From assembly GCA_030167865.1 (NCBI GenBank), contig JALAGF010004103.1, forward strand, positions 1 to 55,263: a stretch of 55,263 bases of DNA, in the 5' to 3' direction. The stretch is from Craspedostauros australis (lineage: Eukaryota). Under the pieces are notes generated by a model. That model was not told the DNA's origin. It saw nothing but the letters and a program-made list of their open reading frames with translations, and did not search any database. A program made the translations under genes and the position numbers. Positions 27,901 to 54,309 of the stretch are shown here, piece after piece (position 1 is the first letter of the stretch; each line of letters begins with the position of its first letter).

Positions 27901-28094
27901 CTGAATCACTCGCGAAGAAGTCTACGAGGAAGCCGTCATCAGCTGGAAAGACCATCGAGGAAGGCAAGAGCAATGGCAGGCACATGGCAAACCCTGGAAA
28001 CGGCGGCCCTACTGCTGCCGCAACTGCAGAAGCAAAGAAGGGGTTGTCCATGACGAATTCTATCTCGCCACCGACATCCAAGCCGTCGCCGTGA
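24983..28094 (+). CDS. Signal-peptide-bearing Pro/Gln-rich, long coiled-coil protein of unknown function, 2 exons
   Basis: ATG 24983 (MKLPTNAMQLCLSILALLVLSLQSSLCDG); intron 26838-27039 (GTGAGT...AAACAG, phase 1) joins two long ORFs in frame; E/K/L/Q heptad-rich C-terminal half. About 969 aa. Confidence 0.75.
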
Positions 28095-30992: not shown

Positions 30993-33991
30993 ATGCCGGC
31001 AAAAGGCGGAGCATCGCAGGCTCGGGCCCGCGTCTCCACAGGCTTCGTGATCGTCGCCACCGTCCTGAGCTCTCTGATTGCCTTCTTCGTTGGCAAACTC
31101 GCTCGTGAGATCCTCGTGGATGGACCGGCCAAGACGCTGCTGCAGGAGCAGAACAGGATCTTGATGGATCATGCAGCGGCCGTCGAGAGGCTCAGAAGTC
31201 AGCGGCAGCATGCGTCAGCCACCGTCATCGGCGACGGTGCTGGAGACGGCAAGGCGGCGGGCCTTCCTCTGCCGGTGGTCCCCAAGGGCAAGCGATCGCC
31301 CAACACCATCTACACATCCAAGAACTTCGACACGTCGCAGAGCTCCAGCACGAAGAGCAGGTGGGTCGTGCAGCATCAGGACGGTGCCGATGCAGTTGCT
31401 GCGAATGCGGCCGCGGCCGCTGCTGCTGCAGATCACTGTGAGGCCTCCGACGAGGATGGATCCTGCGTTGGAGAAGCGCCAACCGAACAAGCTGATGAGG
31501 CGGACGACGACGACGAAGAAGATGATGAGAACGATGATGAAGACGGCGCAGATGGCGATGAAGAAGTCCATCTGCCAGCTGGTCAGCACCTGCTCATTGA
31601 TCTCGACGGCCTCGATGCTTCCTTTCTGGATTCCGAAGAGAGATTGGCAACCGCCATGCTGGATCTGGTCAACGAGTGCGGCTTGACGTTGCTGTCGTAC
31701 CATTGTCACGGTTTGCAACCTTCGGGCGTGAGCTGCGTCGGCGTTCTCCTGGAGAGCCACGTCTCGTTGCACACCTGGCCATCGCACGGAGTCATCACGC
31801 TGGATCTCTTCACCTGCGGACCCAACTCCCTCCTGCCGGTCGTGTCATCTGCCGAACGCCTCTTTTCCGTCGCCGCATCGCCGGGCGTCAAGCCGACCAT
31901 GATCTGGGCGCACAAGACCAGAGGATTTCCGGACATGGACTCCAGCTCAAGAACCGCCGATCTCATGGCCGTCGCCGACCTCGAGTTCTTCCCCATCGGT
32001 CGCATGATGGAGTACAAGGAGCAGATCGCGTCCGAGAAAACGCCCTTCCAAACCATCGACATTTACGACGTCGTTCAGCCCGAATTCACGCTCATGGAAT
32101 CCTTCCGCAAAGCCATGCAAACCGACGTCCCGTCCTACGAATCCGAGCATCCGCAATTATTCCAGCCCGATCGCATCGTCTTCCTCGACGGTGTCCTACA
32201 GTCCAGATCCAAAAGCGACGCGGCCTACCACGAGACCCTCGTCCACCCGGGCATCTTCACGCATCCGAACCCAAAGCGAGTTGCCATCATCGGTGGCGGG
32301 GAGGGTGCCACGTTGCGCGAGACGCTCAAGCACAGAACCGTCGAGGAAGTTGTCATGATCGAGATCGATGAAATGATGGTCAACGTCTCCCGCAAGTATC
32401 TTCCGCAATGGAGCGACTGCAGCAATTTGGTGGGCAGCGCGGACAGCTGCTTCGACGATCCCAGAACCACCATGTGCTACGAGGATGCCAAGGCATGGTT
32501 CTTGAACCGCTACCTCAACACAAGCGATGGGGAACAGCAACACGAGAAGTTCGATGTCATCATCATGGACGCTCTGTAAGTCATGTATCCATCGTCGTGT
32601 GATTTTCATGCTCTTTGCATGCTACTGTACAACTGTGCATCAGCTCCTCATTGATTGCAACAAACGAAGGAACGAGTTCCCATTTGCTCACATTGCGTCA
32701 TCATGCTCCTCCAATCCATTCTCTTTCTTGTACATTCAACGGAATCACACACCAATTGCGAATAACATGACACACAACAAAATACCAAATACTGTGCAAA
32801 TAACTCGAACATTGCAAACAATGCAAATGCAGGGATCCACAAAATGATGTAGGCCTCGCCGCGGAGCTCTACAGCAACTCCGACTTCTACACCTCCATCT
32901 ACAACGCCCTATCTGATAACGGCGTCCTCATTTCGCAGATCGGTGAGACGGACCGTATCAGCGATCCGGCGGACCAGTTCACTCGGGACTCCTGCGTTGC
33001 GGACATGGTCGACAGAGCCACCGATGTCGGTTTCAAAAACATCCTCAACTACGAGGAAGGCCACTGCGGTTTCATGGCACCGTGGAGTTTCTTCATCGCC
33101 CTCAAGGATTACAATTCGCGATCCGACTGGTTCGCGAACGAGGCCACCGTCACCCTCAAGATGCGGCAGCGCCTCATGAGGGTCAAGGGCGGAGAGGCGT
33201 CGCCGCTGCTCTTCTTCGACGGTGCGACCATGAAGCAACTTCAATACCCCAGCAAGGCAATGGAGGTCGTGCACTGCCGCAGAATACCCCAGCCGGAGGA
33301 ATGCAAGGACGATCATGGATTGAATCCTGACAACCGCCATCATCCCATCGACGTCCTGGAGGTGCGGCAGAGCTCCGTCAGCGAGAACGCTGGACGTGGT
33401 GTCTTCACCAAGGTCGATCTCAAGAAGAATGAGTACGTTGGCATGGACAGGTTAGTGCATGCGGTGTACATGGAACCAGCAACCCACGACCTCATGACGG
33501 CCTGGTACGAGAACGAGCATTGGAACTGGGATTATCACAACAAGGCCATGGAGGGATACACGCACGGCTACGGCCATCTGTTCGGCGATCATGGCGGAAC
33601 GCACGCGTTCGTCGACGCCTCGCTGCATACCTTCATCAACCATGCCTGCAACGCGCAGAATAACATGGGGCACGACATCTCCGTCACGGAGACCAACGTA
33701 TCACCCGATGACCCACCGCCGGACGAAATCCAGCGCTACACCTCCAGGATTTACAGTCCATTCACCGATCGGCAGATGCATTTCTATTCCGCCGGTCACG
33801 CGCGCAGAGACATATCGGCAGGCGAGGAGCTGACCGACAACTACCTTGCACTGAGCGGGATTCAGAAAGGATTCTGGAAAGAAGAATTGAAATCCCTTCG
33901 TGCTGTCTGTGCCGGTGAGCACGTCGGTCGTGTGACGGCATACGAAAGCGGAAAAGACGAAAAAGACAACAATGAAGAGAAGAAGAACTGA
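30993..33991 (+). CDS. Membrane-anchored AdoMet decarboxylase-aminopropyltransferase-SET domain fusion (copy 1), 2 exons
   Basis: Exon 1 30993-32575, intron 32576-32832 (GTAAGT...ATGCAG, phase 2), exon 2 32833-33991; about 913 aa. AdoMetDC: GQHLLID..LLESHVSLHTWP..LDLFTCG. Aminopropyltransferase: LDGVLQS..YHETLVHP..IIGGGEG..EID..DVIIMDALDP. SET: AGRGVF..FINHAC..DISAGEELTDNY. Confidence 0.93.
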
Positions 33992-34367
33992 GGGCATTCT
34001 CGCACGAAGTCGCAGCGCACGTATCAAGGAGCACATCCTTTGCTCCACTATCGTCTTTCTGGAGGTATTTGGATCTCCGGTGCTTGGTGCGAAAGATAAG
34101 TTGAACCCGGCTGTTCCATCTATGTGTATCAAGCTGATAAGTAGTATTGTAGAATTCGCTTCAGAGTTTAGTGGAGTGGAGTACTCTCCTCAAGCCCATC
34201 ATATGAGCACGAGCATTACAGCAGTGCACTCTGCGGCGATCCCCACACAGCGCCCTCACCACCAATGCTCCCTCGAAAGAGAGAGGGTACAACGAGTATA
34301 CTGCTGTGGAAGTCTACTGTAGTCTACTAAAAGTTCCCATCTTGCTGGTGCTCGAACTCAGCATCGA

Positions 34368-37277
34368 TTAATCCATCAGATCCAACGGTGCGATGGCAGA
34401 CGTGATTGGATGCTTTGCGCTGCTTCGGGTGCTGCGGTCGTCGCTATCGTCATCGTCGTCATCAGATCTGCTCCTGCCACCGACCGTCGCGCGGAAACCG
34501 ACAGGCGTTAACTGCGAGAAGAAGCCGCCCAGTGAACGTGGTCCGTGAGCGCTGTTATGTGTGCTGCCGCCGTGCGTGCTGCCTCGGTCAAGGGATTTGG
34601 ACTTGCCGATTTCCTTGCGCAGGGATTCGATGAAGAGATTCTTTTCATCGAGCTCTTCGATGAGCTGGTCGATCTCCTTCTGATGCTGACGTTCCGTTTC
34701 ATCGCGTTCCTCCTTTAGCTGCTGGATTTCCTGCTTGTAGTGCGATGGGAACCCGTTGCTGTTGCCATCAGCAGTGGTCGTTGTGATGGCCGTGCTGGCA
34801 TTTCCTGTGCCACTGACATGGCTGGGAGATGCGGATGGGTAGGTTGTCAATGCTGTTGTTGCTGCTGCTGCTGATGATGATGTTATCGCAGATGACAGTG
34901 ACGGTGCAGCCTGGATGGCCAATGCTGGATTCTCAATGCGTTGAATGTACGCCTTGAGCCTCTGGATCTCATCATCCTGCTCCTCGATGGTGGACTGCGC
35001 AACTTCGTAGTTCTGCTTGAGGATGGCATACTCGCCCTTCAAGAATCCCTTGTCGTCATCACCGTCGTGCTTGTTGTGGTTGGAATTGTCGCGTTCGATT
35101 TCATGCTCGTGTTGCTCCATCTCCAACATGGAGACGCGGCATTGCATGGTTTCGTACTCCTGCTGGAGCTGGTGCAGCTCCTCCTCCAGCAGCTTGTTCT
35201 TCTCGAGCTGCTTCTGATGCTTGATGTAGATCCCGTCCTGCTCGCTCTGGAAATGAATGCGTTGCTGACGCAGCAGGTTACGTTCCTGTGAGAGCGCCTT
35301 CTCGATGGTCTCCACAGCATCCTGACGCTGCTGCAGGGATGCGTTGGCACCGTACTGCGTGATGGCCATCCTGGATGCACGGATTGCGCAGAAGTAGGTG
35401 TCGAGCTCCTGCATGGCCTGCTTGGATTGCGCCTCGGCTCCCTTGATCTTTTCCTCACGCTGGTTGAGCTCTGTCTCCCAGACGGCCAGACACTGCTCGC
35501 GGGCGTTGGAGACGTCGCGTTCGGCTTTCATGACTTCCATGGCGGACGTTGGGGGCTTCTGGAACGCTGCGTCGTCGTCGGAATCATCGTCGCTGTTGCA
35601 TTCTGGAGAAGCTTCGTCAGGCGTCAGGGCTGAGGGCGCGATATCTTCCGATCCATCACCCGCATCAGTCGCCCCCAGTGTTTGCGCTTGCGACTGTGAC
35701 TGCGATTGCGTCTGGGTTGCAACAATGTTGTCAGCACTATCGATGCTCGTTGGCGTTGCAGTGGTGTCCACGGAAACGACCGACTTTGCCCCCTCGGCCT
35801 TGGGAGACATGAGATACCTGCTGCGGCTGCCATCGCCGCTGTTGTCGCTCTCGTGTCCATGATCGTGTCCATGATCGTTGCCATTGTCATTGTCGCTTGA
35901 GGCCTTCTTCCCAGTTGATTTTTTGGTCTTTGAGTTCTTCTTCTTCGATTTCTTGTCCTTCTTCTTGGATCCGCTCTTGGTGGAACCGGTGCCATCGATG
36001 GTGCTGTCTCGCTTCTTCTTCTTGCCGCCCGTGGACACCTCCGCAGTCTCCGAGTCCGAATCAGCCTGCATGCTGGAGCGCTTGTGCTTGCTCTTGGTGC
36101 TTCCCTTGGTGCGCTTCTTGCGCTCCTTGTCTTTGGGCTTGGTCTTGCGGTCGGACTTCTTGTCCTTGCGGCCGGGAAGGGGGCTCTTGGACTGCTTGCG
36201 CTCCTTCCTGTTGGTGCGGATGATGGACATGGGTGCGGTGGAGGTGGAGCGGCCGCCCACAGAGTCATCGTCATCGTCGTCATCGTCGCCGTCATCGTTG
36301 TCCTGATCGCGCGGAGCGTCCGCACGCAGATTGCGACGCCGGTGGCCAGAGCCTCGCAGACCGAAGCGCATGTGCGTGGATCTGGATCGTCCCTGCCGCC
36401 GCACGTCTGTCTGCGCAGTCTGCGTGGTGAACTGGGACATGTCATCGTCATCAACATCATCAACATGGTTGTCAACATGGTTGTCAACATTGTCATTGTC
36501 ATTGTTGTCCTCATCGCTGTTGATGTCCATGTCGCTGTCAATATCCATGTCCATGTCGTAGGCAGCGATGGAGGTCCTGGACTTCCTGGTCTTGCTCTTG
36601 GAGCGCTTGAGCGGCCACGTGAGCAGGTTGGAGACCCTCTTGCGGGCCGAGGCGCTGCGGGAACGGCGTCTGCCGGTGCCTCCGCCAGAGCCGTCCTTGC
36701 CTCGGTTGCCTCCGAAGAGCGAGCTCTCCATGGTCATGCTGGAGACGACCGTGTCATTGTCGTTGTCATTGTCATTGTCGTAGAGAGGCCGCTGGCTGGG
36801 ACGCCTGCCCCTGCGCTTGGGAGAAGCAGACGAAGCATCGGAGGAGTAATTGTACTCCTTCTGCAGCAGATGCATCTTGTGCGCCGAACGCGTGGATTCG
36901 CGGCGATTCAGCTTCGATGCGAGTCTGGAGGGGAGGGCTGCCAGCGCCGACGCGCTCTTGCTGCGGTTGCTGCCGAACTGGCTGCCACGGTCCCTGTTGC
37001 GTCCGCGACCGCGTCCTTGGCTTCGGTCGTCAGCCTCAAGGTCCCCCTCGAGGTCAGCCTCAAGATGAGCCTCAAGGTGAGCCTCGATGACATGGTCTGC
37101 GTCGCCGTCGTGGCTGTTGGCGCCAACGCTGTTCCTCTTCTTGTCCTTCTTCTTCGACGCCCTGGCTGCCTTCGATCGCTTGCCGGACCTGGGAGACACC
37201 ATCTCCTCCTTCAGAGGCATCACGCCTTCCTCCATGTCTCGCATCTTGTCAATCTCGCTCTTTGTCTTCTTCTTGGG
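34368..37277 (-). CDS. Lys/Arg/Asp/Ser-rich low-complexity protein with C-terminal coiled coil, unknown function (5' end uncertain)
   Basis: About 970-codon open frame with coding-like codon usage. It begins right after a likely splice acceptor (CACTTGCAG, 37278); the first in-frame ATG is at 37244. Confidence 0.7.
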   Translation of the reverse strand, partial: PKKKTKSEIDKMRDMEEGVMPLKEEMVSPRSGKRSKAARASKKKDKKRNSVGANSHDGDADHVIEAHLEAHLEADLEGDLEADDRSQGRGRGRNRDRGSQFGSNRSKSASALAALPSRLASKLNRRESTRSAHKMHLLQKEYNYSSDASSASPKRRGRRPSQRPLYDNDNDNDNDTVVSSMTMESSLFGGNRGKDGSGGGTGRRRSRSASARKRVSNLLTWPLKRSKSKTRKSRTSIAAYDMDMDIDSDMDINSDEDNNDNDNVDNHVDNHVDDVDDDDMSQFTTQTAQTDVRRQGRSRSTHMRFGLRGSGHRRRNLRADAPRDQDNDDGDDDDDDDDSVGGRSTSTAPMSIIRTNRKERKQSKSPLPGRKDKKSDRKTKPKDKERKKRTKGSTKSKHKRSSMQADSDSETAEVSTGGKKKKRDSTIDGTGSTKSGSKKKDKKSKKKNSKTKKSTGKKASSDNDNGNDHGHDHGHESDNSGDGSRSRYLMSPKAEGAKSVVSVDTTATPTSIDSADNIVATQTQSQSQSQAQTLGATDAGDGSEDIAPSALTPDEASPECNSDDDSDDDAAFQKPPTSAMEVMKAERDVSNAREQCLAVWETELNQREEKIKGAEAQSKQAMQELDTYFCAIRASRMAITQYGANASLQQRQDAVETIEKALSQERNLLRQQRIHFQSEQDGIYIKHQKQLEKNKLLEEELHQLQQEYETMQCRVSMLEMEQHEHEIERDNSNHNKHDGDDDKGFLKGEYAILKQNYEVAQSTIEEQDDEIQRLKAYIQRIENPALAIQAAPSLSSAITSSSAAAATTALTTYPSASPSHVSGTGNASTAITTTTADGNSNGFPSHYKQEIQQLKEERDETERQHQKEIDQLIEELDEKNLFIESLRKEIGKSKSLDRGSTHGGSTHNSAHGPRSLGGFFSQLTPVGFRATVGGRSRSDDDDDDSDDRSTRSSAKHPITSAIAPLDLMD

Positions 37278-38630
37278 CTGCAAGTGTGATTGTGAGCGTT
37301 AGCGTGAGCGTGATGATGCCAATGGGATGTGAACGTGGATGTGAAGGTGAAGGTGAAGGCGAAAGGTGGTTACCTCGGATGGAGTTGCCGATGCCGGTCT
37401 GCGGTGTTGGTAACTTCGACAGTGTCAACGATTCTGAGAATTGTGTTGGCGGCAGCTCACCAAGAAGATGAAGAAAAGAAATGTTCGGGCAGCAACACCA
37501 CCAACACCAACAACAGCAACAACAACAGCAACAGTAGCTTTGCCGATGGAATTCGATGATGCCGTTGTCAGCAACGCCGAATCTCGGAGCTTGTGCTTCC
37601 TTTCGCGACAAGACCACACTTCGTGAAACTGTGCCACTAACCCCTTCTGCGGTTGCTTATTGTTCGTTGGGAGAGTTTGGTGACCCGTTTTCGTGTTTTG
37701 GGATCGAAAGTACGTTTTCATGCAGACAGCCTTGTTATTAGTATTACCGTGGTAGATCCTATTGGAGGAACCACGTTGCACGTCGAGGAGAGAAAGGCAA
37801 AGGAATCACGCTCTACGACAATCACCCAAACACAATAATTCGCGCGATGACTGCCGTTCGCACGAGACCAAACATCTAACCTGTCCTTCTCCGTGCAGGA
37901 AATCAAGTTCCTTCGTTTCTTCTTGCCAAACAGCCAACGAGTGAAAGTGTTGGTAGCCAGGCGTTGGTTTCTCCTCCTCTCAGCATTGCCGCCGTCGTCG
38001 TCGTCGTCGTTGTTGTTGCTGTTTCTCCATGCCGAATTGCATTCCTCTCCAACCGCCATCGATCGCACACGTGGGAATACGCGCAACTCTCGGACAATCC
38101 AAAACGGCACGCAGAGGCTGGTGACTGTTGTCCAAGGTCCACAACGCAGGACCTTGCGCAGAGAGGCCACAAGCAATACCAACACCGACACTGCCACCAA
38201 CACCGGCACCAATCCAAAGCGATGAGATCCGTGGGATGTGGTGCCGCTTGGTCTTCGTCCATCATTCGCGTTGGTTCACCACACTTCGTCGCATGTCATT
38301 CCACTTCCCCGATCCCGCAAAGTTCCCATCGGTGCCGCTTCCTCCAATGCGACACAGACAAGTGAGACTGATCGCCCGTTTACGAATCACGCAGGAACTA
38401 TTTCCGTATCAATGGATATCAAAACCCCGTTTCGGGATTCGTTCCGCCTGTCACTGTCAACAATCAATCACGATGTCCTGTCGCAAGACAATCCTCTCCA
38501 TTTATGCCTAGTCTTGAACTTGTCCCTTCTATCTCAGTGGAACATTATTGACATTTCGAGGAATTCTGTCGTTCTGTTTGGATTGAAATTAAGTGTATAT
38601 ATGTTGCTTTTTCGACCTCTCAGACCACAA

Positions 38631-38712
38631 GACAACGTGGCCGAGTGGTTAAGGCGATGGACTGCTAATCCATTGTTCTTTGAACGCGAGAGTTCGAATC
38701 TCTCCGTTGTCG
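38631..38712 (+). tRNA. tRNA-Ser (anticodon GCT)
   Basis: Acceptor stem GACAACG/CGTTGTC + discriminator G; D arm TGGCCGAGTGGTTAAGGC; anticodon arm ATGGA-CTGCTAA-TCCAT; long variable arm; T arm GAGAG-TTCGAAT-CTCTC. TTTT Pol III terminator follows, with TATATAT about 30 nt upstream. Confidence 0.97.
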
Positions 38713-40190
38713 TTTTGCTCAACCACAAGTACCAAACGTTTTGCTTCGGAAAACTCTCCTCGATACTGCTTGCTTTTTGCCTCTGTTGATTAGTCCCATT
38801 ATATGATTGCAACTCTACTCTACCAATACGAGTACAATGGGCTCTCATTTGCTTCCTCACATTCTTGCATCATGAGTGAGAGAAAGGCACAGAACAGAGC
38901 AGAGCACATATGAGCGTAATGAGTGGGAGATCCCGTTTGGTTCAACCGTGCTTGCGATAGTGGATTGAGGATGTCAACCCGCTCCTGATCAGTGCAATGA
39001 TTGGCATGGTGTTTGCACTCTGTTTGCTCGGATTTGCATTCAGCCATGCTCCCAGTGAAGACCCCACAAGACAGTTTCGTGACCACGGTGGCACAGTCCA
39101 TGTCGATCATTCCGCGATGCCCCGATCGTTGCTGCCTGCCCGAAGCGCGCAGATGCGACACAAGAAGAACATGCATTCCTGCAACTTCCCTCACGATGAT
39201 TTCATCCCGTCCTCCGTGTCTCTCCCAAAGTTAGGGCGCTGATCCAAAGTCTGCGATCTATGCTCCACGTTGTAGATAGTGTGACCGTGACAAGAAGTGA
39301 TCGTTTGTAGCCGATGGACCGTGGAAAGAGGACGTTGTGTCTGTCTGTTTACTATTTGTATGTTGGAACAATCAACTCCATATGTATGTCATTTTGTGTG
39401 TGACTGTTGAATATACAAACAGAGTGTCCTTAATTGATACAAATGTGTTCAATGTCAGCAATGTTATTGGTGTGTCCCGCGCTTCTGTCTTTCGTTTTTA
39501 TGCCACATCCCCTCCTCAAAATTATTAAGGACACACTAAATGATGCCAAGTTGCATGAAGCAAGTCGCATCAAGCAACGAGGGCCACACTTGTACGAGCG
39601 AACATCTCCGGCGGAAGAGTAGGTCGGACGTGAGAGCAACTGATCATAGCTCGTTAACGCATCAATGTTGAGAGAGAGAGAGAGAGAGAGAGAGAAAGTA
39701 TTGTATGATAGAAAGCCTGCTGCTCCCAACGAACGCGAAATTGTTTGTGTCGACAGTCTCGTGATTCAGATGAATGGTCGCGATTCGACCAGTACGATCA
39801 ACAACACAACGATGACCAACAGGCGTTTGTGTGAGTTTGGTTTTGTGTTGCGGCAAAAACGGCGGTGGTGGGAATGGAACTTCGACGTTCGACGTTTGAC
39901 GATCGCGCGAAGAGGAGGGAGACGCACTGTTCGATGCTGTGTCCAACGAAAGAGGCTGTATGATTGTCCCCTGATGATCACACAGAGACGCTCCGCGCCA
40001 CATCGCCCCAAGGTTTGGGATTCGTCGAAGCTGCAAACGTGAGCGTTGGGAAGAGTGAACGCTGCCGCCCCTCATCAGATCGCGCCAGCGCCGACATCAC
40101 CTCACCGTTTGGAAGAGAGCTGATCATCCAGTGACCCACCCATCCGGAGTGGCCCTTTGCTTGGCATTCATCGACCATTCGTTGGCCTTC

Positions 40191-40234
40191 AGTTGACCAT
40201 TAGTTGATCATTAGTTGATCATTAGTTGACCATG
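40191..40234 (+). repeat. 4 x 11-bp tandem repeat AGTTGAYCATT running into the predicted Spt5 start codon
   Basis: AGTTGACCATT AGTTGATCATT AGTTGATCATT AGTTGACCATG read directly. Confidence 0.9.
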
Positions 40235-43200
40235 GCGTAAGTCGAGATTGTGCATGTGCTGCAAAGCCGGCGATGGAGTGGATCTGTTGATGGATTGCAC
40301 GATGCGCAATGGTCAACGCGTTGATGAAAAGAGAAGCAAGGGGTATCATCTATCTGATGGAGTTGCTGTGTTACATGGTTGCCATGCTTCATTGACTGAT
40401 TGGATGATTGGATGATCGATCGCGGACGATCATCATGGTCACGAAACAACGGGCAGATGGTCATTCTGACACCCTTCTTCGCCTGCTTCTCTTGCTTCTC
40501 CATCTCTGTGTCCATGTCTATCTTCCTCTTCGCTTCTTTGATTGCCTTCCATTGCCTGTGATTGCCTTCCATTGCCAACTTCGCCGCTGTCTCCGCCATC
40601 GAATCGTTGGCTCCAATGCCAACGCTCATACCCGTACTCGCACCAATATCCATGCTGCACGATACTCAAACCATTTCGCAGTTCTCGAGGCGGCAAGTTC
40701 TTCCGACCGGGCAAGAAGTTCCTTCGTCCACCGCCTGCGGACGATGACGAAGATGATTCATCATCGGAGGAGGAAGACGAGCAGCAGGACACGGTGCCGT
40801 CGTCCAAGAAGAACGTCAATGCCAACCTTTCCTCCGACGATGACGACGAGGATGACGACGAAGATGAGGAGGAGGAAGCAGCCAAGTCCAAGAAGCGAAA
40901 GATGTCATCCGCCAAGGGATCCTCCAGCAGCAAGCGACCCAAGGCCAGCTCCTTTTTCGACGAGGAGGCAGAAGCATCCGAAGACGACGACGAAGATGAG
41001 GAGGCCTTCGGAACGCATCACGATCCGCACGATGTTGTCAAGAAGTACTACACGGAGGAAGACATCCGCCGCGAGCAGATGGACGAAGATGCGCAGGAGA
41101 TGATCCGTCAGCAGGATCGCCGTCGTGCGCAGGCGGGGATGACGTTCGGAGAGGAGGAGCACGAAGAACAGGGCCGACCACCGGAGCGCACCGTGGCGGA
41201 CCTCGCCAGGGACATTGAAGACCGCCATCGCATGCAACAGCGTCGTGTGGACCGCAACGTCATGGATCGTCGCGTTGTTCGGGAAGAGACCGGAGTCGGC
41301 GGCCCCGAGTCCTACTCGGCCGTGTCGCAGCAGAGCCTCCTGCCCTCCGTGTCGGATCCAAGCATGTGGATGGTTTCGTGCCTCACGGGCAAGGAGCAGG
41401 AGATGGTCCTGCAGCTCATGAACAAATGCGTTGCGTATGCCAGACGGGGCAAGCCGCTTGGGATCTGCGGTGCCGTGGCGGGACAGTCCAAGGGACGCAT
41501 TTACATCGAGAGTACCAGCGAACCGGCTGTCATGGAGGCCGTCCAGGGCATCCGTGGGCTCATGCAGTACACGATGCGTCTCATGCCCATCCAGGACATG
41601 CCGACTGTCATGACCGTGGTTCCCAAGAACAGACCAGGTACGCGCGACTTGCCACTTTCGATTACCACTGTGAATGTTATTGCCTACTGCCATTGCCATA
41701 TCCGTTGCCATTGCTATCGTTTTTCTTCGTCTCATGGTGGGGTGCATATCCGCACAATCATCATGCTGCCGTTCTCTCACTCATTTTTGCTCATACATCT
41801 CCCCATGTAATTATTATCTGGCTTCTTCGTTTACAATCAAATGCACTATCTTTGTGCACATCATGCCAAACCAAACCAAACGATCAATCGCATCACCCCA
41901 CCCTCCAACATATTGCAACCTATGACGCTCTAATCTCCATCCTGCAATCGACAACAACAACAACAATAGTGAAAAAGAATGACTGGGTGCGCATGACTCG
42001 TGGCCATTACAAAGGCGACCTCGCGCTTGTCCTGTCCGTCCGTGAATCGGGATTGAAGTGCGTCGTCCAATGTGTGCCCCGTATCGATTACACGCTGAGC
42101 GAACTGAGCCCAGAACAGGCGCGCATCCGTCGCAGGACCGTCAAACCCCCGCAAAAGTTCTTCAACCCCGCCGATGCCGCGCTGGTTGGGAACAGCGAAA
42201 TCCGGAGAATGAGATTCCCTGGCTTGGACATTTTCTGCGACGCCTACGACGGCAGTCACTACCAGGATGGTTACCTCATCAAGGAAATGACGGTGGGATC
42301 CATGGTCAAGCGTTGCACGGACGAAGATCCACCGACCCTCGACGAACTGCAGCGCTTCCGCAAACGTCCCAAGTCAGGCGAAGATGACGACGATGAAAAC
42401 GCCGGATCCAAAATGGCATCCTCCCTCTTGGATGAGCTGTCGGAGATGCAGGGCAAGACCAACCTTGGCAAGAAGAGCTCCGGGAGCGGCTTGCTGATCG
42501 GCGACACCGTCGAAGTCATCGAGGGAGACTTGGTTGGATTGAGAGGCAAGATCATGAGCATGGACGGGTCGACCGTGAAGGTCAAGCCAAACGACACCTC
42601 GATGGACATTGGTGGAACTGGCGAAATCGAATTCCTCTCCAACCAGGTGCGCAAGTTCATTGCCGTCGGTGCCCACGTGAAGGTCACGGACGGTCGGTAC
42701 GCCAACGAAACAGGTGTGGTGGTCGCTGTGGAACAGATGGATGGTGAGAGCGATTTCACCGCCGTTGTCTTGACGGATATCACCAACAAGGAAATCTCCG
42801 TCCGAACATCGCAGGTCCGAGAGTCTGCCGAGGTGGCATCCGGGCAGGACAAGTTGGCAGGCTACGAACTGTACGACTTGGTCGTCCTCAGTGGAGGTGG
42901 TTCCGCCAACGAAGTCGGTGTCATCGTTCGAGTCGGGCGAGAGGATTTCACCGTCGTCAACAATCACGGCATCAGTCGCGAGGCTCGGCCTGAAGAATTG
43001 CGAGGAAAGCGCAACCAGGCATCCAACCGCGCAGTGGCGCTGGATGTGCAGGGCAACCAGATCCGTTGCGGTGACTTGGTCAACGTGGCGGAGGGGCCGC
43101 ACAAGGGCAAGGTCGCCACCATCAAGCGCATGAGCCGGTCTCAGCTGTTTCTGTACTCGCAGACCCGTTCGGAACATGCCGGTATCTTCGTGGTCCGCAG

Positions 43201-44299
43201 CAGAAGTTGCGTCTTGTCAGGATCGCGCACACAGGGTCGCGACTCCGGATCTGGCGTCGCAGGCTCCCCGTTCCAATCGCCTCAGTCACAATCGGCCGCC
43301 CCCGTGGCATCACGCGGACGGCGTGACGACGCACTGGTCGGAAAGACTGTCAGAATCCAATCCGGCAAATGGAAAGGGTATCTTGGTGGCGTGTCTGACG
43401 CGACGGCGACGCATGTGCAGGTGGAACTGCATTCCCGTCTGAAGAAGGTGATGGTCGTGCGTGAGAGAGTTGCCGTTGTTGGAGACAAGTTCGGAGCGAC
43501 GGAGAACACCGACACAACCAATATGCCCGACGTCAACCCGATCGGGGCACCGACCACCCCATTCGTCGGCGCAGGAGCAACCCCGATGCACGGAGGTGCT
43601 ACGCCCATGCACGGCGGAGCGACTCCAATGCATGATGCTGGCGCGGACGAAGTCTGGAGGCCTGGTGCGATGGATCAGGATGCAACCTCGTCATCGGACA
43701 ACGATGGATGGGGCGTGTCCACGAAGGAAGAGACTGGATTCGGCGCATCTACGCATGACAACGATGCAGGATGGGGATCGAGCAACCAAGAAAACAGCAC
43801 CTGGGGTGCGACGGCCACCCCGAAGCAGGAGCCAGGTGTCGAGACTTCGCATCAGAATGGAACAGCCTCGATCGACACAAGCGGCGTGGGCGCCAGCGCC
43901 AACGGAACCGGCCCAGCAGGGGCTCCCGCCATCAAGGGCAGCCAAGGTGTGGCGGCAGGCCACGCGGACAATGGTGGCAGCGCGAACGTTTGGTTCATGG
44001 AGCGCGTGTATGTGCAGTTCAAGAGCGATAGCAAATCTGCCGTCATCAAGGAGGTCAACGACGACAGCACGGCCGTGGTGGAGATGGACGATGGCTCCAG
44101 ACGCACAGTTCGGGTCGACGAGGTGTCGCAGGTCCAACCGGTGGAGAAGGACACCGTGCTAGTGATCGGAGGTGCCGACGTCGGCATGGAAGGGCAGCTC
44201 ATCTGCATCGACGACAACGACGCCATCTTGAGGGATGCCAATGAGGAGTTCAAGATCGTCGACTTTGTGCACCTCGCCAAGATCAACAACGATGCGTAG
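40232..44299 (+). CDS. SPT5: Transcription elongation factor Spt5, 3 exons
   Basis: Exon 1 coding 40232-40236 (ATGGC), intron 40237-40681, exon 2 40682-41637, intron 41638-41969 (GTACGC...CAATAG), exon 3 41970-44299; about 1096 aa. Acidic N-terminus (FFDEEAE), LLPSVSDPSMW + NGN domain, multiple KOW motifs, CTR repeats GATPMHG. Confidence 0.95.
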
Positions 44300-44882
44300 T
44301 GCTAGATATTGATGTTGATGTTGATCGGAATGGTCTCTCCTCGAGTAGAGAGCAATCGTACGCACCCTGCATACTCCACTCCAGCAGGAGCGCAGTCCCG
44401 TACAATGAAGCACAACATACGATCTACGATGCTCTCCGAGTGCGATCATGATAGATGGAACATCAGGACGACAACCCTACGGATAATCATCAACATTAAG
44501 GTCTCATCAATACTATAAATGGAGTACGATACGTTCCACTTGCAACTTGCCGTGCGCAATCGTACGCGTATGCGCATGGTGATGCTCTCAGGAGCATCCC
44601 TTGCAAAGTCATCAACGCACTTGAACGCAAGTGCCAACAGTACGATGCTCCATTCCATTCCGTTCAATTTGCTTTGTTTTGGACGTAGGAAGATCACTGA
44701 TGTTAGTACTCTTGAGTCTTACAGAAGAGTAGCAGAGGATGGTAGTCGCTCTCTCAATAGCGAGAGAGAAAGAGAACGTGCCATGCATTATATCATATAA
44801 TATTATATTATACTTCACATTCGATCGTACTGGAGTATAGCATGCCACATGCACTAGTTGATAGCAGGGTGGTACCAACGCA

Positions 44883-45308
44883 TCAATCTTCCTTCTGGAC
44901 CACGACGTTCCATTCCTGAATCTTGTGTCCGGTGACGATCCCTGCGGAGACGTAGGGATCCTGCTCCACGAAGAGCTCGGCGGACGCAGCGTCGTTGAAG
45001 ACGAAGATGGCGCCCGTGGGGACCTCCATGGCGACTTCTCCGATGGGACCGCCGCTCACGCACTTGCCCTCGCCGATGAGCTTCTTGGCCAAGCCAATGT
45101 GTCCCTCGCGATACGGCCCTCGCTTTTCCAGAACATCGGGGATGTAGTCGTACGTGAGGACGAACTGCGTTGCAGACAGCGAAGTGGTGGATGAGATGCC
45201 TCTGCTGCCTGCGCGAATGCCGCTCGCGAGAGGTCGGAATGCCAACACTGACTGTCGTCCAGCCGCTGCGACGGCGACCGCGAAACCGAGTCTTCCCAAT
45301 CCAGTCAT
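44883..45308 (-). CDS. YciI-related domain protein with probable plastid presequence
   Basis: FVLTYDYIPDVLEKRGPYREGH..SGGP..GAIFVF..FVEQDPYV..GIV..IQEW matches the YCII pattern; N-terminal hydrophobic stretch with VLA-FRP site. Confidence 0.85.
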   Translation of the reverse strand: MTGLGRLGFAVAVAAAGRQSVLAFRPLASGIRAGSRGISSTTSLSATQFVLTYDYIPDVLEKRGPYREGHIGLAKKLIGEGKCVSGGPIGEVAMEVPTGAIFVFNDAASAELFVEQDPYVSAGIVTGHKIQEWNVVVQKED

Positions 45309-45863
45309 GATGTGCCTTGCCTCTCTCGAGTAATTATGTGATTGTGATTGTGATTGTGAGGATGAACGAAGTGGAGTTGAATGGGGAGATGTTATGTTGT
45401 TGCGGCAGTTCCTCTTTGGATGCTCCTTCCAGCCATAAATGTTTGGTGCTGGTCAGCGTCAACGACGCCAAGGATCCCGACGGCGTCAAAGACATGTAGA
45501 TCTTTGGATCTTTCTTGTTTCGGCTTGCCGCACAGAACGAGAACAACAACGTGGTGCTTGATTAGCCCTTTTGACAACTGCGGATATGTCGCTTTCTGCA
45601 GCAAGAAATGCGACAAACGAGTATTTGGCGGAAGCGCTTGTATTTTCCGAGAAGATTTCGCATTCCGATCAGAAATTGCGGTCAGAATCCCAATCGACGC
45701 ACACAACCTCAGCCATCAACTGCGTCGCGGCACGGAATGGTGGGAGGCCCCATTGTTGCGAATTGATCAGAGAGAGAGAGAGACAGTCATATACCCCACA
45801 TATTATACCCACATATTATACTCACATATTATACTCACGTACCCATCTGCCACAACGACCAAG

Positions 45864-47767
45864 ATGCAAACGAACGAATACGGGGCATACGACGCCTACG
45901 ACTACAACGATGTTGGCGTCCAGCAAGACGAGCACATCCTGGATCAGTCCATGCCATACCAGCAGCAGCTCCAGCCAGAGCAGCAAGCCGTGGCCTACGC
46001 CTTCGATGATCCCAAGATCGCATCGTTGCCACGCATCCTTCTGATGGGCCCTCGCAGGAGCGGAAAGACGAGTATTCAGGTCCGTTCAGTCGTCGCCAAA
46101 CGAACCAGTGTTGCGGTCTTGTTCTGCAGCGCAACATGGGATCTGATGCCCTTTCCTTTTGCTTGAACTTGAACTCGAACTCGAACTGTACTTCATCGCA
46201 TTTCATCTCGCCATGCTCGATCTCGGATCTCCGTTGTTCTACCAATATTCCACAGCATCATTATACACTATCCACATATTATATAATACCTGCCATACGA
46301 AAATCAACACTCTACTCAACTCATATTCACACCAATGCTCACCCGTATTCGACTCAACTTGACTCGACTCGCCTCGACTTGAATTCATCATCACAGCGTG
46401 TCATCTTCCAAAAGATGTCGCCCCACGAGACGCTGTTCCGGCTGGAACCCACGCAGAGGCTAGAGCGGGCAGTCGTGGACCATGCTCCGCTGTGCCGATT
46501 CACTATCCTCGACTTCCCGGGCGACTACTACGGCTATGACGACTTCGGCTACAACGACACCCAGGCGATGGGGCAGGGAGCAGGCGGTGCACCCGCGGAG
46601 CAGAATGGGATGGTCGAGATCGATCAGACCGCCACGTTCGGAGGCACCACTTCGTTGGTCTTCGTCATGGATGGGCAGGACGAGCCGTTCGCCAACGCCC
46701 TGCAGAGCCTCACGACGGCCATCCGGCGCGCGATCCAGGTCAATCCAAACATCGCCGTGGAGGTATTCATCAACAAGACGGACGGCGACCTCTTCTTCAA
46801 CGACGATGCAAAGTACGAGTGCCAGCGCGACATCATGGCACAGGTCAACGACGAGCTCAGGGAGGCTGGCCTCAGCCCGGACAGCATCCAGATCAGCTAC
46901 TACCTCACCAGCATCTACGATCACTCGATCTACGAGGCATTGTCACGGGTGGTGCAACGGCTCATCCCGCAATCGCCGACGCTGGAGAACCTCCTCAATG
47001 TCCTGGTTAACACATGCTTCTTGGAAAAGGCGTACCTCTTCGATGTGGTATCCAAGCTCTACCTCAGCACAGACGATGGCCCGGTTGACATCCAGAGCGT
47101 GGAGCTATGCTCCGACATGATCGATGTGGTGCTGGATGTTAGCAGCATCTACGGGCTGGGCCCATCGCACCTGGAGCTTGGCAATGGTCCCGCGAACGAG
47201 GGTGGAGAGGCGAATAGGCAGGACCCGATGGCGGCAGCGAGCACCAGCGCCGCGAATTCATCGGCGGATGGCCACGGAGGAGATGAACTGGTCGGCACGA
47301 TGATCAGTCAAACGCCGGGAGAAGCCCCCGACGAGGAGGAGATCGTGGACCCGGATTCTGCGTACGACAGTGAAAGTGCCAGCGTTATTCGTTTGAGCAA
47401 TGGAATGGTAAGTTCGTGCAGAGTACTACTCCGTGATATTGACGGCCGTGTTGGTTGTCATCAGTAGGAGTACTCTCCATTCTCGACTCTCGTACAGTTT
47501 TCATACTCGCACAATCTCAGCCCAGACTCATCCAGGTTCTGCCTTGCATATTTCATTCCATTCTGTTTCGTTTCACTTCATTTGGGTGATGCTCCTCGTT
47601 CGCAGGTGCTTTACCTGAAAGAAGTCGATACGATGCTGGCCTTGGTGTGCATAACTCGTGCCGAGAATTTCCGGAAGAAGAGTCTCATCAATTACAACAT
47701 CGGATGTTTGAAGAAGGCATTGCGTGCGTTGGTGCAACCGATTACGGAGAGTTCGAATTCAACGTAG
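45864..47767 (+). CDS. RRAGC: Rag GTPase C/D (Gtr2) homolog, 3 exons
   Basis: Exons 45864-46079, 46397-47407 and 47606-47767 (GT-AG, both introns phase 0); about 462 aa. RILLMGPRRSGKTSIQ|RVIFQKMSPHETLF, EVFINKTDG, YLTSIYDHSIYEA, AYLFDVVSKLY, ELCSDMIDVV, IRLSNGM|VLYLKEV. Confidence 0.93.
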
Positions 47768-48222
47768 CTCTGAGAGAATGCATGGTAGACACATTCCATG
47801 CTAATCATGATCGTGGTGGTTGTGATCATGATCGTGATCGCAATCATGTCCACCTCTGTTTCCACACTCATGGACATAGAGTGTGGCATTGACACGCCGT
47901 CCTTTCCTTTCGTCATGATGCGACATAGTGTGCTACTCCAGAGAGAAGTGAAGGCCACGAGCGTAACGCCCTTGCCTCAAAGGAAAGAGCATTGTCTTTG
48001 TTTACTGTGATCGTCTATCAGTTCTTACGTTGGCATCTGTTCTTGCGTTGCTTTTATGGTGTATACTAGTGTTTGGAAACAACAAATCAGGATGTTCACG
48101 GATGATGTGATGGCTACATCGTACGTTTCCTGTGGAACGAGACGGGGGGAGAAATGTACAAGCTTCGATGCGGGAAGCTGGTGTGCGGATCGGGGGATAG
48201 AGTGTGAAATCGTACAGACGCC

Positions 48223-51200
48223 TTATTCCTTGGTTGTCTCGTAGTATTTCACATACCCCAGATCCGTGCCATCACATTGTGCCTTGAGTCCGGCGAACTC
48301 TATCTCCCAATAACCTGTGGTCAGACCCGTCATGCCGAGGTAGTTGTCGAAGAGTTCCTCACCCTGCGCGATGTCAATCAGCGGGACGCCGCTGGAATAG
48401 AAGTGTGGCTTTCGATCCGTGCTTGGGTTGTATGCGTATGGTCTGGTCTTGACCTTCAAGATCTCAGCTGGGATATCATTGCCGGCATTCTCTGTGCTTT
48501 CGTGGACAGTGAGGTTGTGCCCGACGTTGTTGCTGCTCTTGCAGCCATGGTTGATGAATGTGTGGATGGAGGCATCCGAGTAGATGTGGATGCGACCTCT
48601 GTCGCTGAAGGCATGGCCGTACGCATCGACATACATCTCCAAGCTGTACGAATAGTGCTCGGCGTCGAAAGTGCTGTGGTTGTACTTGTACCAGCTGTTG
48701 ATGATGTCATATGTGCTCGGTTCCACGTACACGGTGTGCACCAGACGTTCCAGTCCAACGTACGAGTGCGCAGGGATATCCTCCTTCGCGAATACTCCAC
48801 GTCCAGCATTCTCACCGAGCGAGCTTGGCTTCACCTCCAGCATCGAAATGGGGAGATTTGCGCGAGTCTGGTCGAAACCTCTGTGCTCCATGCAACCTTG
48901 CGGCGTTGGTTCCCTGCGGCAGTACACCACCTCGCTCTGCTTTGATGGGAAGGCGTACGATGCCATCGTTGGACCATCGAAGTAATGCAACGGCACCTGA
49001 TTGTCCTTTGTTGGGACGACCCTGCTTCGGATCTTGTAGTTGACGACAGCTGGGTTATCAAACCAATCAGCCTTGGTGTCGTACTTCTTCATCGCGACGA
49101 TAATCTCCCATGCTGCGCTGAATCCACAATGGCTCTGCATCGTCAGAAACGAACGTTTGCAGTATATTGAATATTGTGGAGAGTTGTCGTTGGAGTGGGA
49201 ATGAATACGAATAATGACAAGGCATTGGGGTGAGGGTTCATGTTCCACGAAATGGTCGATCGGAATACTCGTAGAGTCGAGCGAAATGCAAAGTGACGCG
49301 GTGACCACAGCGTGTGCGATTGCAGTTCTGCGCAAGCAAACAATCTGACGACGATAACGATAACGACATGGCAACAAATTGGATGGTGCCTTTTGCAACC
49401 GGTCGAACATACCTCCTCGTAATTCCGCACGTGTCCGAAATCGAGATCAAGGAGCGAGAGGATGAACTTCATTCGGTTCTTGTTGATGGAGTGGTCTTCT
49501 GCCGGTTCTTTGAGATTTGGTGCCTGGCCGACCTGCGCTACCAGTATGCCGCTCTCGTCCAATGATCGCGAGATGGCCTTGAGGAACGTTCCCTCGCTGT
49601 AAAGGGCATCGACAAAGTCCACCTGGACTTGCGGATCCAACGCATCCATGATGACGACGTCAAAGAGATCAGCAAGAGGCTCTCCCACGGGGTAACGATC
49701 ATCAAACCACTTGAACGCGTCCTCGTAGTAGGTTTCCACTCTGGGATCATCCAAACAACTGTCCGCGCTGCCCATGAGGTTGCTGCAATCGTTCCACTGG
49801 GGAAGGTACTTGGTTGAGGCCTCCACCATGGTCTTGTCAATCTCAATCCAAACGACCTTTTCGACGGTGTTGTGCTTGAGCACCTCTCTGAGCGTGGCTC
49901 CCTCGCCACCACCGATGATGGCAACGCGCGTGGGATTCTCATGCGTGAACAGACCAGGGTGAACGAGGGCCTCGTGATAAGCAGCATCACCGCTTCTTCG
50001 GGATTGCAGCACACCGTCCAGGAAGACGATGCGGTCAGGTTCGAAGAATTTAGGATTTTGCATGTGGTAGGTGTTGTCTCCCTCGCCTCCCAGACCGATG
50101 GATTTTTCGTAGTCCTCGTGCGATTCCTTTCCAAGAAGGAAGGCATCATAAATCTCAATCTTCTGAAAGTTGGTCTGAACGGTTGCCACCTGTACCATCG
50201 CAAACAAATATGTGCATGCAGCGTATGCAGTGTATGCATTGTATGAGAATGGCATTGATGATACCATTAGAGAGTGAAAAGAGGGAAGAAGATGATGTGG
50301 GCACAGTCGCGTGGTTAGGTGTCGATGAGATGTCAACGAGATGGCAACTGTAGATACGCTGAATGGCAATAACGCATTGCGATATCCATCTATCTCTCCA
50401 TCCCTCCATCCGCCAATGCAAATTAGCAAGCTAGAGCATTCGAATAATCAAGAGAACAACGTACCGACTCCTTGTAATCCAAACGTTGGCCGATGGGGTA
50501 ATTGAGCACATCCGCGAGTTCCTCCGCACCGGGTTCGTTGTCTCCGCGGAATCCACGCAGCTTGTGCGCCCAAACAACGTGGGGGGTATCCACCTGCTCG
50601 CCTTCGTAGGCTGGCTCTCGTGGGATGCTGAAGAGCGCCTCCGCCTTTGGAACGACAGGCAGCAAGGAGTCGGGACCGCACGTGAAGAGATCGAGGGTGA
50701 TGACGCCACGCTCTGGCCATGTGTGGAAGGAGACGTGACTCTCGAGCAGCACGCCCGCACAGGTGACGCCCGTGGGCGTGAGCTTGTGGCAGTGGTAGGA
50801 GAGCAAGGTGAGGCCGCACTGGTTGACAAGATCCAGCATGGCGATCGCCAGCCGCTCCTCAGAATCCAGGAAGGCAGGGTCGACATTTTCGATGTCCATC
50901 AAGATGTGCTGCCCTGCTGGCAGATGCTCCTCGTCGTCGCCGTCCCCTTCGTCCAGATCAATACCGGCGGCGTCATCGGCGGTTGGCGCAGACGCTGCCA
51001 TGGAAGATCGAGAGCACTGCTGCTTGGCTCCATCTGCCGAAGCGTCATCGGAGCACACCGAAGCATCGGCAGCATCAGCATCATCACCACCTGCCTTGGC
51101 TCCCGAAGGAGTCTCGTTGGGCTTGATCCACCGCGATGAGACCGACGCAGATCTGGCGGTGTCGAAGTTCTTGGAGGTGTAGAGGGTGTGGGGGACGATG

Positions 51201-51490
51201 CGGCCGTCCTTCATGACAGGGTCCGGAAGCTCCGCCATGCGAGCTTCAGACCCCTGATTGGCGGAGGAGTGCAGAGCATCATCGAGGCTGCTGATTTGGG
51301 CCGTCAGCTGCATGCGCTCCTCCATGAGGTCTCTGAGCAGAGTCTGCTGAGCCCTGACGGCATCCTCGAACGGCGCATCGACCAGCAGGGTCCTGGCCAC
51401 TCTGCCAACTCCGAAGGCGCACAGGCACGTCGCGATCACCGACAGCACGACGAACCGCGACGATACAGCCACCTTGAATGCGTCCGTCAT
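48223..51490 (-). CDS. Membrane-anchored AdoMet decarboxylase-aminopropyltransferase-SET domain fusion (copy 2), 3 exons
   Basis: Exons 51490-50465, 50189-49413 and 49134-48223 (GT-AG introns, phase 0); about 904 aa. LLESHVSFHTWP..LDLFTCG; YHEALVHP..IIGGGEG..DVVIMDALDP; AGRGVF..FINHGC..DIAQGEELFDNY. Confidence 0.93.
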
Positions 51491-51540: not shown

Positions 51541-53113
51541 TGATGCTGGATTGTGTGCTGGCACAATAGACTTCTCTTTGTTGAAATCGATTCAATTCGA
51601 CTCAGTTCGCTGGAACCCAATGCAACTCAACTCGATCTGCTCTCGGGTTGGTTGATGGTGTGGTTGTGGGGAGCAGTCGTTGATGTGACCATGATCGTGT
51701 GAGGGGGTTGCCACGAAGTTCGCGAATTTCGTCTTCTTGGTGTTCTCGGTGGTCTCGGTGTTCTTGGTGGTCTCGGTCTGCCGAGAAATCCGTTCGTGTT
51801 GTTCGGCGCAACTGCGTGAGTGGCCACAGATCGTGTGCTTGTGCATAAAACAGTGATTCTGTGGGCGCATAATAATTTCGGCCACGTGCTTCTCCTGTTT
51901 GCGCGCGTTCGCTGCGCCATGCAGACGTCGCAAAAATAACGGGCGCACGAAAGCAATGCGTGCTGTGAGAGAACAGATGTCCGTTGGGTGATTCCTTGTA
52001 CGTTGGGGAAGGTCACCAGTTAGGTGACAACCTCGACAGTCTGTCCGTCCGCACCATTTCAACACCGCATCCACAACGTCCACACAATGATAGTCACGCT
52101 TGTGATGTGCCCACGCGCAGTTTTTGACAAACAAACAAGAACTGCGACGAGCGGGCCGATGACCACATCGCGACGGAATGGCCAACACAGGAGCAAGCCA
52201 ACAACCAAACATGCGTCCGACCGGTGAAAAAGGGACACCAATGACAATCGTTCCTGCAGGATCCGTCACTTTCTCTCTGCGATAGTATGCTCGGTGCCGC
52301 AATACGTGTACTCAAACAATAATAGAATAATATTGTTTTTCGTTGTTGCCCAACTTGATTGCTGAAGCTCAAGGCTCAAGCTCGACTCTGCTCTACTCTC
52401 ATGTGCGCTTCGGCTTTCTCTCTTTCGGTGCACGCTCTGCCAAAAAACGAATTGGCATCTCTGCTCCGATGCGCTGCACTTGTTGTCAACCTTCACGACT
52501 TCCCGAACCCTCCTTCCACAACATCAACGGCACGTGCAAGTGCAATTTGTTCCCGAAATCACACCACACCGCATAGTTCACCGAACTGGATTTCCTTGGA
52601 TAGGGGCCAGGTAGAATTGAGTGGAGTGGTGTGGAGAGTGGAACAGGGCCTCGTTCTCGAGGCGGTTGACTAACCAATGGAGGGAACGAAATCCGAACGC
52701 GACATGGCGTTTGCGAACTTGGCTGCGTTCGCAGCCTGGGTGGCGAGGCAGCAACGAAGAAAGAACATGAGGATCCACGTCTCAAACGAATTGTTGTATG
52801 TCATCATCGCATGCCGGACAGACTCCACCAAGAAGAACACACGACCAATACCAAGACACAGGGAATCCAACAAGCGAAGCAAAACAGAGGAACACCCGAA
52901 GCAGCACCATCCACACATGATCCAAGTCTCCTGTCGTTTCTCCACCCACCCATCCATCAAGAAGACAAGGGATCCAACAAGGCAACGAAAGGAAAGGAGA
53001 GCTCTGCGGGTACTCAAAGCGCAATCCTCCACTGTACGGAAGCACTCCATTATTGTCTCCAGTACTGCCCTGACATGCTCGTATTCTATAATATATAGTA
53101 ATGCAATACGACA

Positions 53114-54094: not shown

Positions 54095-54309
54095 GCCGAG
54101 GAAGCGTTATTGGAGGAACAAGAACGACGTGACGATGCATTGAGCCAGCAACAGACACACTGCAGGAATAGTCTGGCGTTCCTTTATTCAATCCAATCCG
54201 GTTCAATTCAACTCTATTCAATTTTAATGAATCGCATTCCATCGTATAATGTGACAATAGATAAAATACATACGAGTACGAGCTATGTAGCCTGGTGAAG
54301 TAGAGTACT

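Follow-up and report, generated by a model that had tools for sequence, protein, structure and literature searches.

The diatom Craspedostauros australis carries, 14 kb apart on contig JALAGF010004103.1 of its genome assembly (GCA_030167865.1; 65.9 Mb in 6734 contigs), two convergent genes, A and B, each of which encodes in one protein a hydrophobic N-terminal helix, a class 1b S-adenosylmethionine (AdoMet) decarboxylase (AdoMetDC), an aminopropyltransferase (APT) and a SET domain. We analysed this contig in its entirety (55,263 nucleotides, hereafter the window). A and B are, with hardly any doubt, intact members of the known diatom family of anchor-AdoMetDC-APT-SET fusions, and the locus as a whole is probably best explained as a pair of such genes that are neighbours through an old local duplication, not as a biosynthetic cluster. 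How diatoms synthesize the long-chain polyamines that shape their silica has yet to be proven, with these fusions as the foremost candidates; the locus holds two intact, equally constrained, half-identical versions in one genome, a convenient pair for tests of product specificity. Many diatoms could supply candidates for the same product assay.

Gene models, motifs and family membership

Gene A (30993-33991, plus strand) comprises two exons and encodes 913 amino acids. Exon 1 (30993..32575, residues 1-528) covers the hydrophobic N-terminal helix, an acidic linker, the AdoMetDC and the N-terminal part of the APT, and is followed by a predicted intron of 257 nt (32576..32832, GT..AG) that splits the DALDP motif between DAL and DP (residues 528/529); exon 2 (32833..33991, residues 529-913) supplies the remainder of the APT and the SET domain. 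Gene B (51490-48223, minus strand; 904 amino acids) distributes the same modules over three exons, namely exon 1 (50465..51490) with the hydrophobic helix, linker and AdoMetDC, exon 2 (49413..50189) with the APT core and its GGGEG, EID and DALDP motifs, and exon 3 (48223..49134) with the end of the APT and the SET domain, separated by putative introns of 275 and 278 nt, both GT..AG. All three introns were read from the DNA sequence and not from RNA. A look-up for matching RNA runs listed none (a single run of uncertain kind had 0.28 of the sequence words in common), a blank that speaks neither for nor against expression. Both models are in frame with one terminal stop each, and 14,231 nt lie between the two stops.

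Pfam profiles for AdoMet_dc, Spermine_synth and SET scored above cut-off in both proteins: AdoMet_dc at 31587..31823 in A (E 8.6e-23) and 50672-50908 in B (E 7.2e-23), Spermine_synth (PF01564) with E 4.3e-28 in A and 2.6e-31 in exon 2 of B, and SET at 33392..33844 in A (E 1.1e-07) and 48340-48804 in B (E 5.5e-07). Both proteins carry LLESH (A252/B248), TCG, GGGEG, EID and DALDP, together with the SET motifs NHAC (A) or NHGC (B) and GEELxDNY (GEELTDNY in A, GEELFDNY in B). LLESH and TCG we take to be the motifs of the AdoMetDC self-cleavage serine and active-site cysteine, which would place cleavage between E254 and S255 in A (serine codon 31755-31757) and between E250 and S251 in B. A preliminary description of this DNA had listed two full-length paralogs of about 913 and 904 residues, facing each other about 14 kb apart, with one domain order and with LLESH, TCG, GGGEG, D-x-x-DP, NHxC and GEEL..Y in both. 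Gene models and Pfam agree with it, every quoted motif is present, and the profile scan that it proposed returned all three domains in A and in B.

Aligned with each other, the two proteins are identical at 430 of 881 positions (48.8%). An alignment of 60 homologs has 182 columns with at least 90% conservation; A retains 173 of them and B 175, the departures (9 and 7) being mostly conservative, and neither gene is therefore decaying. The same figures uphold the earlier claim that two intact, well-diverged copies have been kept, and they support the retention of both copies under selection. We rejected a pseudogene reading on the open frames, the conserved columns and a third-codon-position GC content (GC3) of 0.73 in A and 0.70 in B, against 0.71 in the neighbouring SPT5 gene.

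Homologs of the AdoMetDC-APT part are numerous (1046 at E<=1e-40 among 6051 candidates), and among the 120 matches listed all those with an organism name are from diatoms. A and B are 38-67% identical to diatom homologs over their full length, and LLESH and GGGEG are retained in 59/60 and 60/60 homologs, respectively. The host assignment is consistent with the matches, since the named relatives of the fusion, SPT5 and RagC genes are all diatom proteins and the one nearest to B is from Stauroneis constricta. In the accessible portions of PMC12803844, PMC12029483, PMC3820600 and PMC6356823, Michael (2011, FEBS Lett 585:2627) is cited as having proposed that fusions of AdoMetDC and APT, with or without a histone N-methyltransferase (SET) domain, synthesize long-chain polyamines, so that the proposal invoked in the preliminary description is real. 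The same portions mention several such fusions per single diatom genome (PMC6356823) and 32 APT fusions in Nitzschia inconspicua (PMC12803844, 2025). Neither the fusion architecture nor the multi-copy state is new: domains, their order and copy number state are the same in the fusions of Michael (2011), and what sets this locus apart from that picture is the presence of two intact copies 14 kb apart, one of which, A, is without a close sampled relative. In the accessible literature on these fusions, in which subscription journals are mostly not represented, we found neither paired or clustered fusion genes nor an assay of a diatom fusion, and a word look-up in the accessible text of PMC5501833, PMC4742977, PMC12206195, PMC13572501 and bioRxiv 2022.09.09.507052 returned nothing on these enzymes.

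Structural comparisons point to the same modules. An AlphaFold 2 model of the C-terminal 290 residues of A (pLDDT 86) matches SET structures (SET8, EZH2, SET7/9; Foldseek E 3.6e-05), and its top fold matches are likewise SET domains (Z 9.8, root-mean-square deviation 3.8, 114 residues aligned). When the Stauroneis ortholog of B was modelled at full length (pLDDT 78, pTM 0.73), its best fold matches were the thermophile APTs 7xih and 1uir (E 5.9e-21, TM 0.81 on target). A sequence search of the PDB with A gave the AdoMetDC matches 2iii, 1vr7 and 1tlu, and for the APT 1uir/3anx and 7xif/7xih ranked best (E 2.4e-29 and 1.2e-25). By both sequence and fold, the best PDB matches are the SpeE enzymes of Thermus thermophilus (1uir/3anx) and Pyrobaculum calidifontis (7xif/7xih), soluble proteins without fusion partners whose identity in the fold match is 26-28%; this likeness says nothing on chain length.

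The putative anchor is a single hydrophobic 19-residue window at about residues 13-36 of each protein (Kyte-Doolittle 2.24 in A and 2.13 in B), with none further downstream. In the model of the Stauroneis ortholog the hydrophobic segment is predicted to run on as helix 30-89. An N-terminal signal peptide, or secretory targeting, is reportedly named as a feature of the fusions in the abstract of the 2011 proposal. The hydrophobic helix (window 30993-31100 and 51390-51490) terminates in an AFxVGxxAR motif that is conserved family-wide; its Ala-Phe presumably resembles the cleavage site of diatom bipartite targeting sequences, but acidic residues come next.

Age of the duplication and linkage of A and B

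Three phylogenies were compared: a quick tree of 68 rows (A, B, three of their own paralogs and 63 of the 120 listed matches, each at least 700 amino acids long or named), a careful tree of 28 hand-picked rows from which the long-branch own paralogs were left out, and a tree of the C-terminal half with 30 rows. In all three, B joins S. constricta P0044 (EP00538_P000422; 67.5% identical over 922 columns, 100/100 as sister) with support of 100, and in none does it join A, to which P0044 is 45% identical; that protein is a transcriptome record, and its genomic neighbours are thus not visible. The rooted trees place A as sister to B, Stauroneis and Bacillariaceae together (99/96 with 28 rows, 97 with the C-terminal half), and an approximately unbiased (AU) test against a clade of A, B and Stauroneis gave p=0.031. 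Bacillariaceae have a later duplication of their own (89/96, 28-row tree), and one of the N. inconspicua duplicates is without the SET motifs (NCHI, no DNY). No close ortholog of A emerged: none of the 83/139 homolog rows compared exceeds 47% over the full length, and there is none among 150/150 representatives (one protein per 50% cluster), where the C-terminal half reaches at most 42%. From these trees, B is most likely the copy at the RagC-adjoining position common to Bacillariaceae, and A an earlier-branching paralog without a close sampled relative.

Other comparisons also speak of age. A and B are 34% identical over the N-terminal region, 72% over the AdoMetDC, 50% over the APT and 46% over the SET domain, against 76% (APT) and 74% (SET) between B and its Stauroneis ortholog. 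No intron is common to the two genes. The intron position of A matches breaks in homologs at loci L064 and L083 (residue 528/529), and that of the second intron of B matches breaks in L050, L077 and C3286, a pattern that would fit an old duplication at the DNA level followed by differential loss of introns. In a whole-window self-comparison, matches were confined to coding stretches (blastn, 67-77%), and a recent or segmental duplication was rejected on this ground; many short tblastx rows in the comparison are noise of sum statistics. Inverted copies flanking a rearranged segment can arise as a by-product of inversion, and the arrangement of A and B could have had this origin.

Genome searches with the two halves of A and with PF02675 gave at least 22, at least 5 and at least 6 matches, which resolve into six genes of the A/B type (type I), three stand-alone genes of the spermidine/spermine-synthase type (on C2605, C2762 and C6334), eleven differently ordered open reading frames (ORFs) and one weak match (C5823). 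The four type-I relatives besides A and B all lie on other contigs. Under a uniform model, the chance that a given pair falls within 20.5 kb of the 65.9-Mb assembly is about 6e-4, and for one or another of the 15 pairs that six type-I genes can form it is about 0.009; since random placement is so unlikely, the closeness of A and B has a cause. That cause is most likely historical, an old local duplication among housekeeping genes (RagC, SPT5) whose order changes slowly. Three genes separate the two fusions: an ORF of about 960 amino acids and of low complexity, without a Pfam family (34368..37244, minus strand); the transcription elongation factor SPT5 (NGN and KOW domains; 40542..44299, plus strand, two ORFs with approximate ends); and a RagC/D GTPase of the Gtr1/RagA family (45864..47467, plus strand, approximate ends).

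RagC is a conserved neighbour of the co-orthologs of B. On scaffold42 of Nitzschia Nitz4, RagC (NITZ4_003393, 52794-54142) adjoins a fusion gene (NITZ4_003394, 58165-61027); on scaffold1120 of Cylindrotheca fusiformis, RagC is gene 9 and the fusion gene 6; and in N. inconspicua, RagC (KAG7350360), a fusion (KAG7350362) and SPT5 (KAG7350368) are all on 4,067,401-bp contigs, with a second allele pair formed by RagC KAG7357512 and fusion KAG7357510. Two JGI proteins, fusion P0021 and RagC P0157, are each on a 15,031-bp contig, which suggests that they share it. Judged from these gene orders, the linkage that is conserved in diatoms (N. inconspicua, Nitz4, C. fusiformis) is that of a single fusion gene beside RagC. 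Rag GTPases signal amino-acid status, and we know of no functional link between the fusion gene and RagC; the fusion gene travels with this functionally unrelated neighbour across these three lineages, and lasting closeness therefore needs no functional explanation at this locus. The second fusion copy of N. inconspicua is KAG7350653, 291 accessions off, or KAG7360295, on a contig whose size differs from that of the partner allele's, so that by these records the two full-length copies are not neighbours. The N. inconspicua paralogs P0007/P0121 and P0015/P0122 are on contigs of one size (4,067,401 bp) in one allele set and on contigs of unequal size in the second, a hint that the haplotypes differ by a rearrangement or by a break in the assembly.

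The 1-kb regions upstream of A and B show no significant similarity (best E 0.12), and a shared promoter was rejected on this match and on the convergence of the genes. The loose biosynthetic cluster envisaged in the preliminary description is not supported, because SPT5, RagC/D and the gene without a Pfam family lie between A and B, the upstream regions are unrelated, the four relatives are on other contigs, RagC is linked to single fusion genes and the N. inconspicua copies are apart. The phylogenetic comparison proposed at the same time put a deep split between A and B; the comparison of synteny, in which no ortholog of A was found, showed one fusion with RagC as the conserved unit. Taken alone, the closeness of A and B adds little, the simplest reading being that a duplicate stayed where it arose.

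Several observations tell against a purely historical explanation or narrow its base. The AU result is marginal, for a clade chosen after the first tree, and the outgroup in the 28-row tree is not monophyletic. For N. inconspicua and C. fusiformis, gene order was deduced from the numbering of accessions and genes and not from DNA. Nor is the block of three genes universal, since Nitz4, Seminavis robusta and Fistulifera solaris have SPT5 and the fusion on separate contigs or scaffolds. In a metagenome set of 80 loci drawn from 395 confirmed relatives, neither SPT5 nor RagC stands beside a fusion (0/80, with at least 3 kb of downstream sequence in only 9/80). A has been near B ever since their deep split, and selection on linkage would give the same picture. 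Among the six type-I genes found, moreover, only A and B have all three motif sets intact. In the same metagenome set, any of 19 neighbouring window ORFs was seen at 0/80 loci, which are mostly transcript-sized (16/80 with at least 3 kb upstream), and a second family copy at 0/80, of which only 21 are at least 5 kb long and whose flanks end at 10 kb.

Proposed function and competing explanations

Class 1b AdoMetDC proenzymes cleave themselves between glutamate and serine and thereby form a pyruvoyl group. In A and B, such cleavage would split the protein as well as create the cofactor, and the anchored N-terminal chain would hold the large AdoMetDC/APT/SET chain non-covalently at the membrane. 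AdoMet might then be decarboxylated locally and passed to the adjacent APT, which would add aminopropyl units repeatedly to a growing amine, and the SET domain would N-methylate the amines to yield long-chain polyamines for silica formation. In the accessible part of PMC6356823, promiscuous archaeal APTs are described as yielding chains up to caldoheptamine. Long-chain polyamines are the product that we consider somewhat favoured for A and B. Both copies may have been kept for some difference between them, be it in the acceptor, the length of the chain, its methylation or the timing. A real division of labour, as suggested in the preliminary description, is plausible at about even odds, A and B being the only type-I genes found with all three motif sets intact. 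The loop C-terminal to DALDP reads QNDVGLAAELY in A, nearer to the S. robusta and centric rows, and QVQVDFVDALY in B, nearer to Bacillariaceae, and A has Ser408 where every homolog with a residue at that column has Gly; these are candidate specificity differences whose effect is a guess.

Other evidence counts against such a product. The accessible text of PMC6356823 describes the family as uncharacterised, and in that of PMC12803844 it 'requires further study'; when bacterial fusions of AdoMetDC and APT were assayed in E. coli, the products were spermine or spermidine (PMC12803844, in the part available) or norspermidine (PMC6356823, likewise). The class 1b AdoMetDC-SpdSyn/SpmSyn fusions assayed in PMC12803844 resemble A and B in joining an N-terminal pyruvoyl-type AdoMetDC to a bacterial-type APT, and differ in that the accessible text mentions neither an N-terminal hydrophobic helix nor a SET domain in them. 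A and B might accordingly make short polyamines (norspermidine, thermospermine or spermine) in a membrane compartment, or aminopropylate and methylate lysines of wall proteins, the methylation in keeping with the protein lysines that SET folds normally methylate. We regard this as rather unlikely, although a serious alternative: separate stand-alone synthase-type genes are present in this genome and would serve short polyamines, and the family is expanded and, among the named matches listed, restricted to diatoms, which fits a wall-related role. As an alternative on the product, it can stand alongside the history of duplication given above.

The remaining alternatives bear on why two copies are kept or sit together. 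Selection for co-regulation could hold A and B in a functional mini-cluster, in which they act sequentially, A priming or capping and B elongating, or form a hetero-oligomer; their non-random adjacency, their status as the only fully motif-intact type-I genes found, the deep split, the differing loops and the Ser408 peculiar to A would all fit. Three unrelated genes nevertheless separate them, convergence excludes a shared promoter, the upstream regions are unrelated, the linkage to RagC is comparably long-lived without a functional tie and the N. inconspicua copies are not adjacent, and we judge such a mini-cluster improbable. A more elaborate version, to which we would give as little credence, makes A a relict that Bacillariaceae have lost, or in which it has escaped sampling; this paralog retains an older acceptor-site loop and forms a two-enzyme assembly line with B, the linkage being kept for co-regulation in valve formation. 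That the two members of such a line differ in starter, chain length or methylation, possibly within a mixed oligomer, is equally doubtful; if true, the A/B pair would be a natural comparison for tracing which residues determine the structure of long-chain polyamines in a given species. About as improbable is dosage redundancy, in which the two genes have one and the same product and the extra copy only raises or buffers flux during valve formation. Identical domain order, intact motifs, the few departures at conserved columns and AdoMetDC domains that are 72% identical would suit it. Against it stand the APT and SET domains, far more diverged between A and B than between B and its Stauroneis ortholog, and the loss of SET motifs in one N. 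inconspicua duplicate, which suggests divergence of roles; pure redundancy of duplicates also seldom persists so long. An old local duplication, with both copies retained, remains the explanation that we prefer for the pair.

Relatives elsewhere in the genome and flanking genes

The four dispersed type-I relatives, for which ORF translations and not complete gene models were read, each appear to be short of a different module. The gene on C4517 (L021:4877-7725) has an AdoMetDC and an APT with DAIEP and is without NHxC; that on C3286 (L027:3243-5874) combines an AdoMetDC with an altered APT (GGSEG, DxxDP absent) and gave no match to SET; that on C5216 (L024:4462-7771) gave no AdoMetDC match and has a partial SET region; and that on C5105 (L044:3984-6107) has SET motifs and a degenerate APT, with no AdoMetDC match. 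Losses that complement one another in this way could point to complexes of mixed composition or to roles shared out between genes, and the family history here is one of repeated duplication with domain loss.

The eleven differently ordered ORFs (977-1095 amino acids; loci L011-L020 and L045, on C1672, C4384, C147, C3404, C6644, C6672, C1309, C3605, C370 and C1746) form a second fusion class and a large expansion within one genome. Their APT is followed by a degenerate AdoMetDC-like domain (found by Pfam in 3/3 scanned), and by eye a SET-like exon with a hydrophobic start apparently lies 5' of the APT. On C1746 (L045:871-10000), two genes of this class stand in tandem on the same strand, about 5.4 kb apart, a second local pair of the superfamily.

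Among the 30 window ORFs scanned with Pfam, a set that leaves some short exons aside, there is no additional polyamine enzyme. Upstream of A the scan identified an MFS transporter (2-1975), a bZIP-like match below cut-off (8642-10195), a cyclin (12726-14987), Oxidored_q6 (15596-16159), Myb (20075-21589) and CIA30 (23303-24139), and two ORFs without a family (24854-27058 and 26937-28094). The ORF at 34368-37244 contains Lys, Asp and Ser runs and a Glu/Gln-rich C-terminal half, and its only Atlas leads are weak ones to coiled-coil, golgin-like proteins (scores 0.83-0.88). Between it and SPT5 (37.3-40.5 kb) a tRNA-like sequence was seen by eye, presumably of the serine type from its likeness to the consensus. 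About 1.6 kb upstream of B and in divergent orientation, the window has a weak match to a DOT1-type methyltransferase (53102-54094, plus strand; E 8.7e-05, 22.6 bits against a cut-off of 23).

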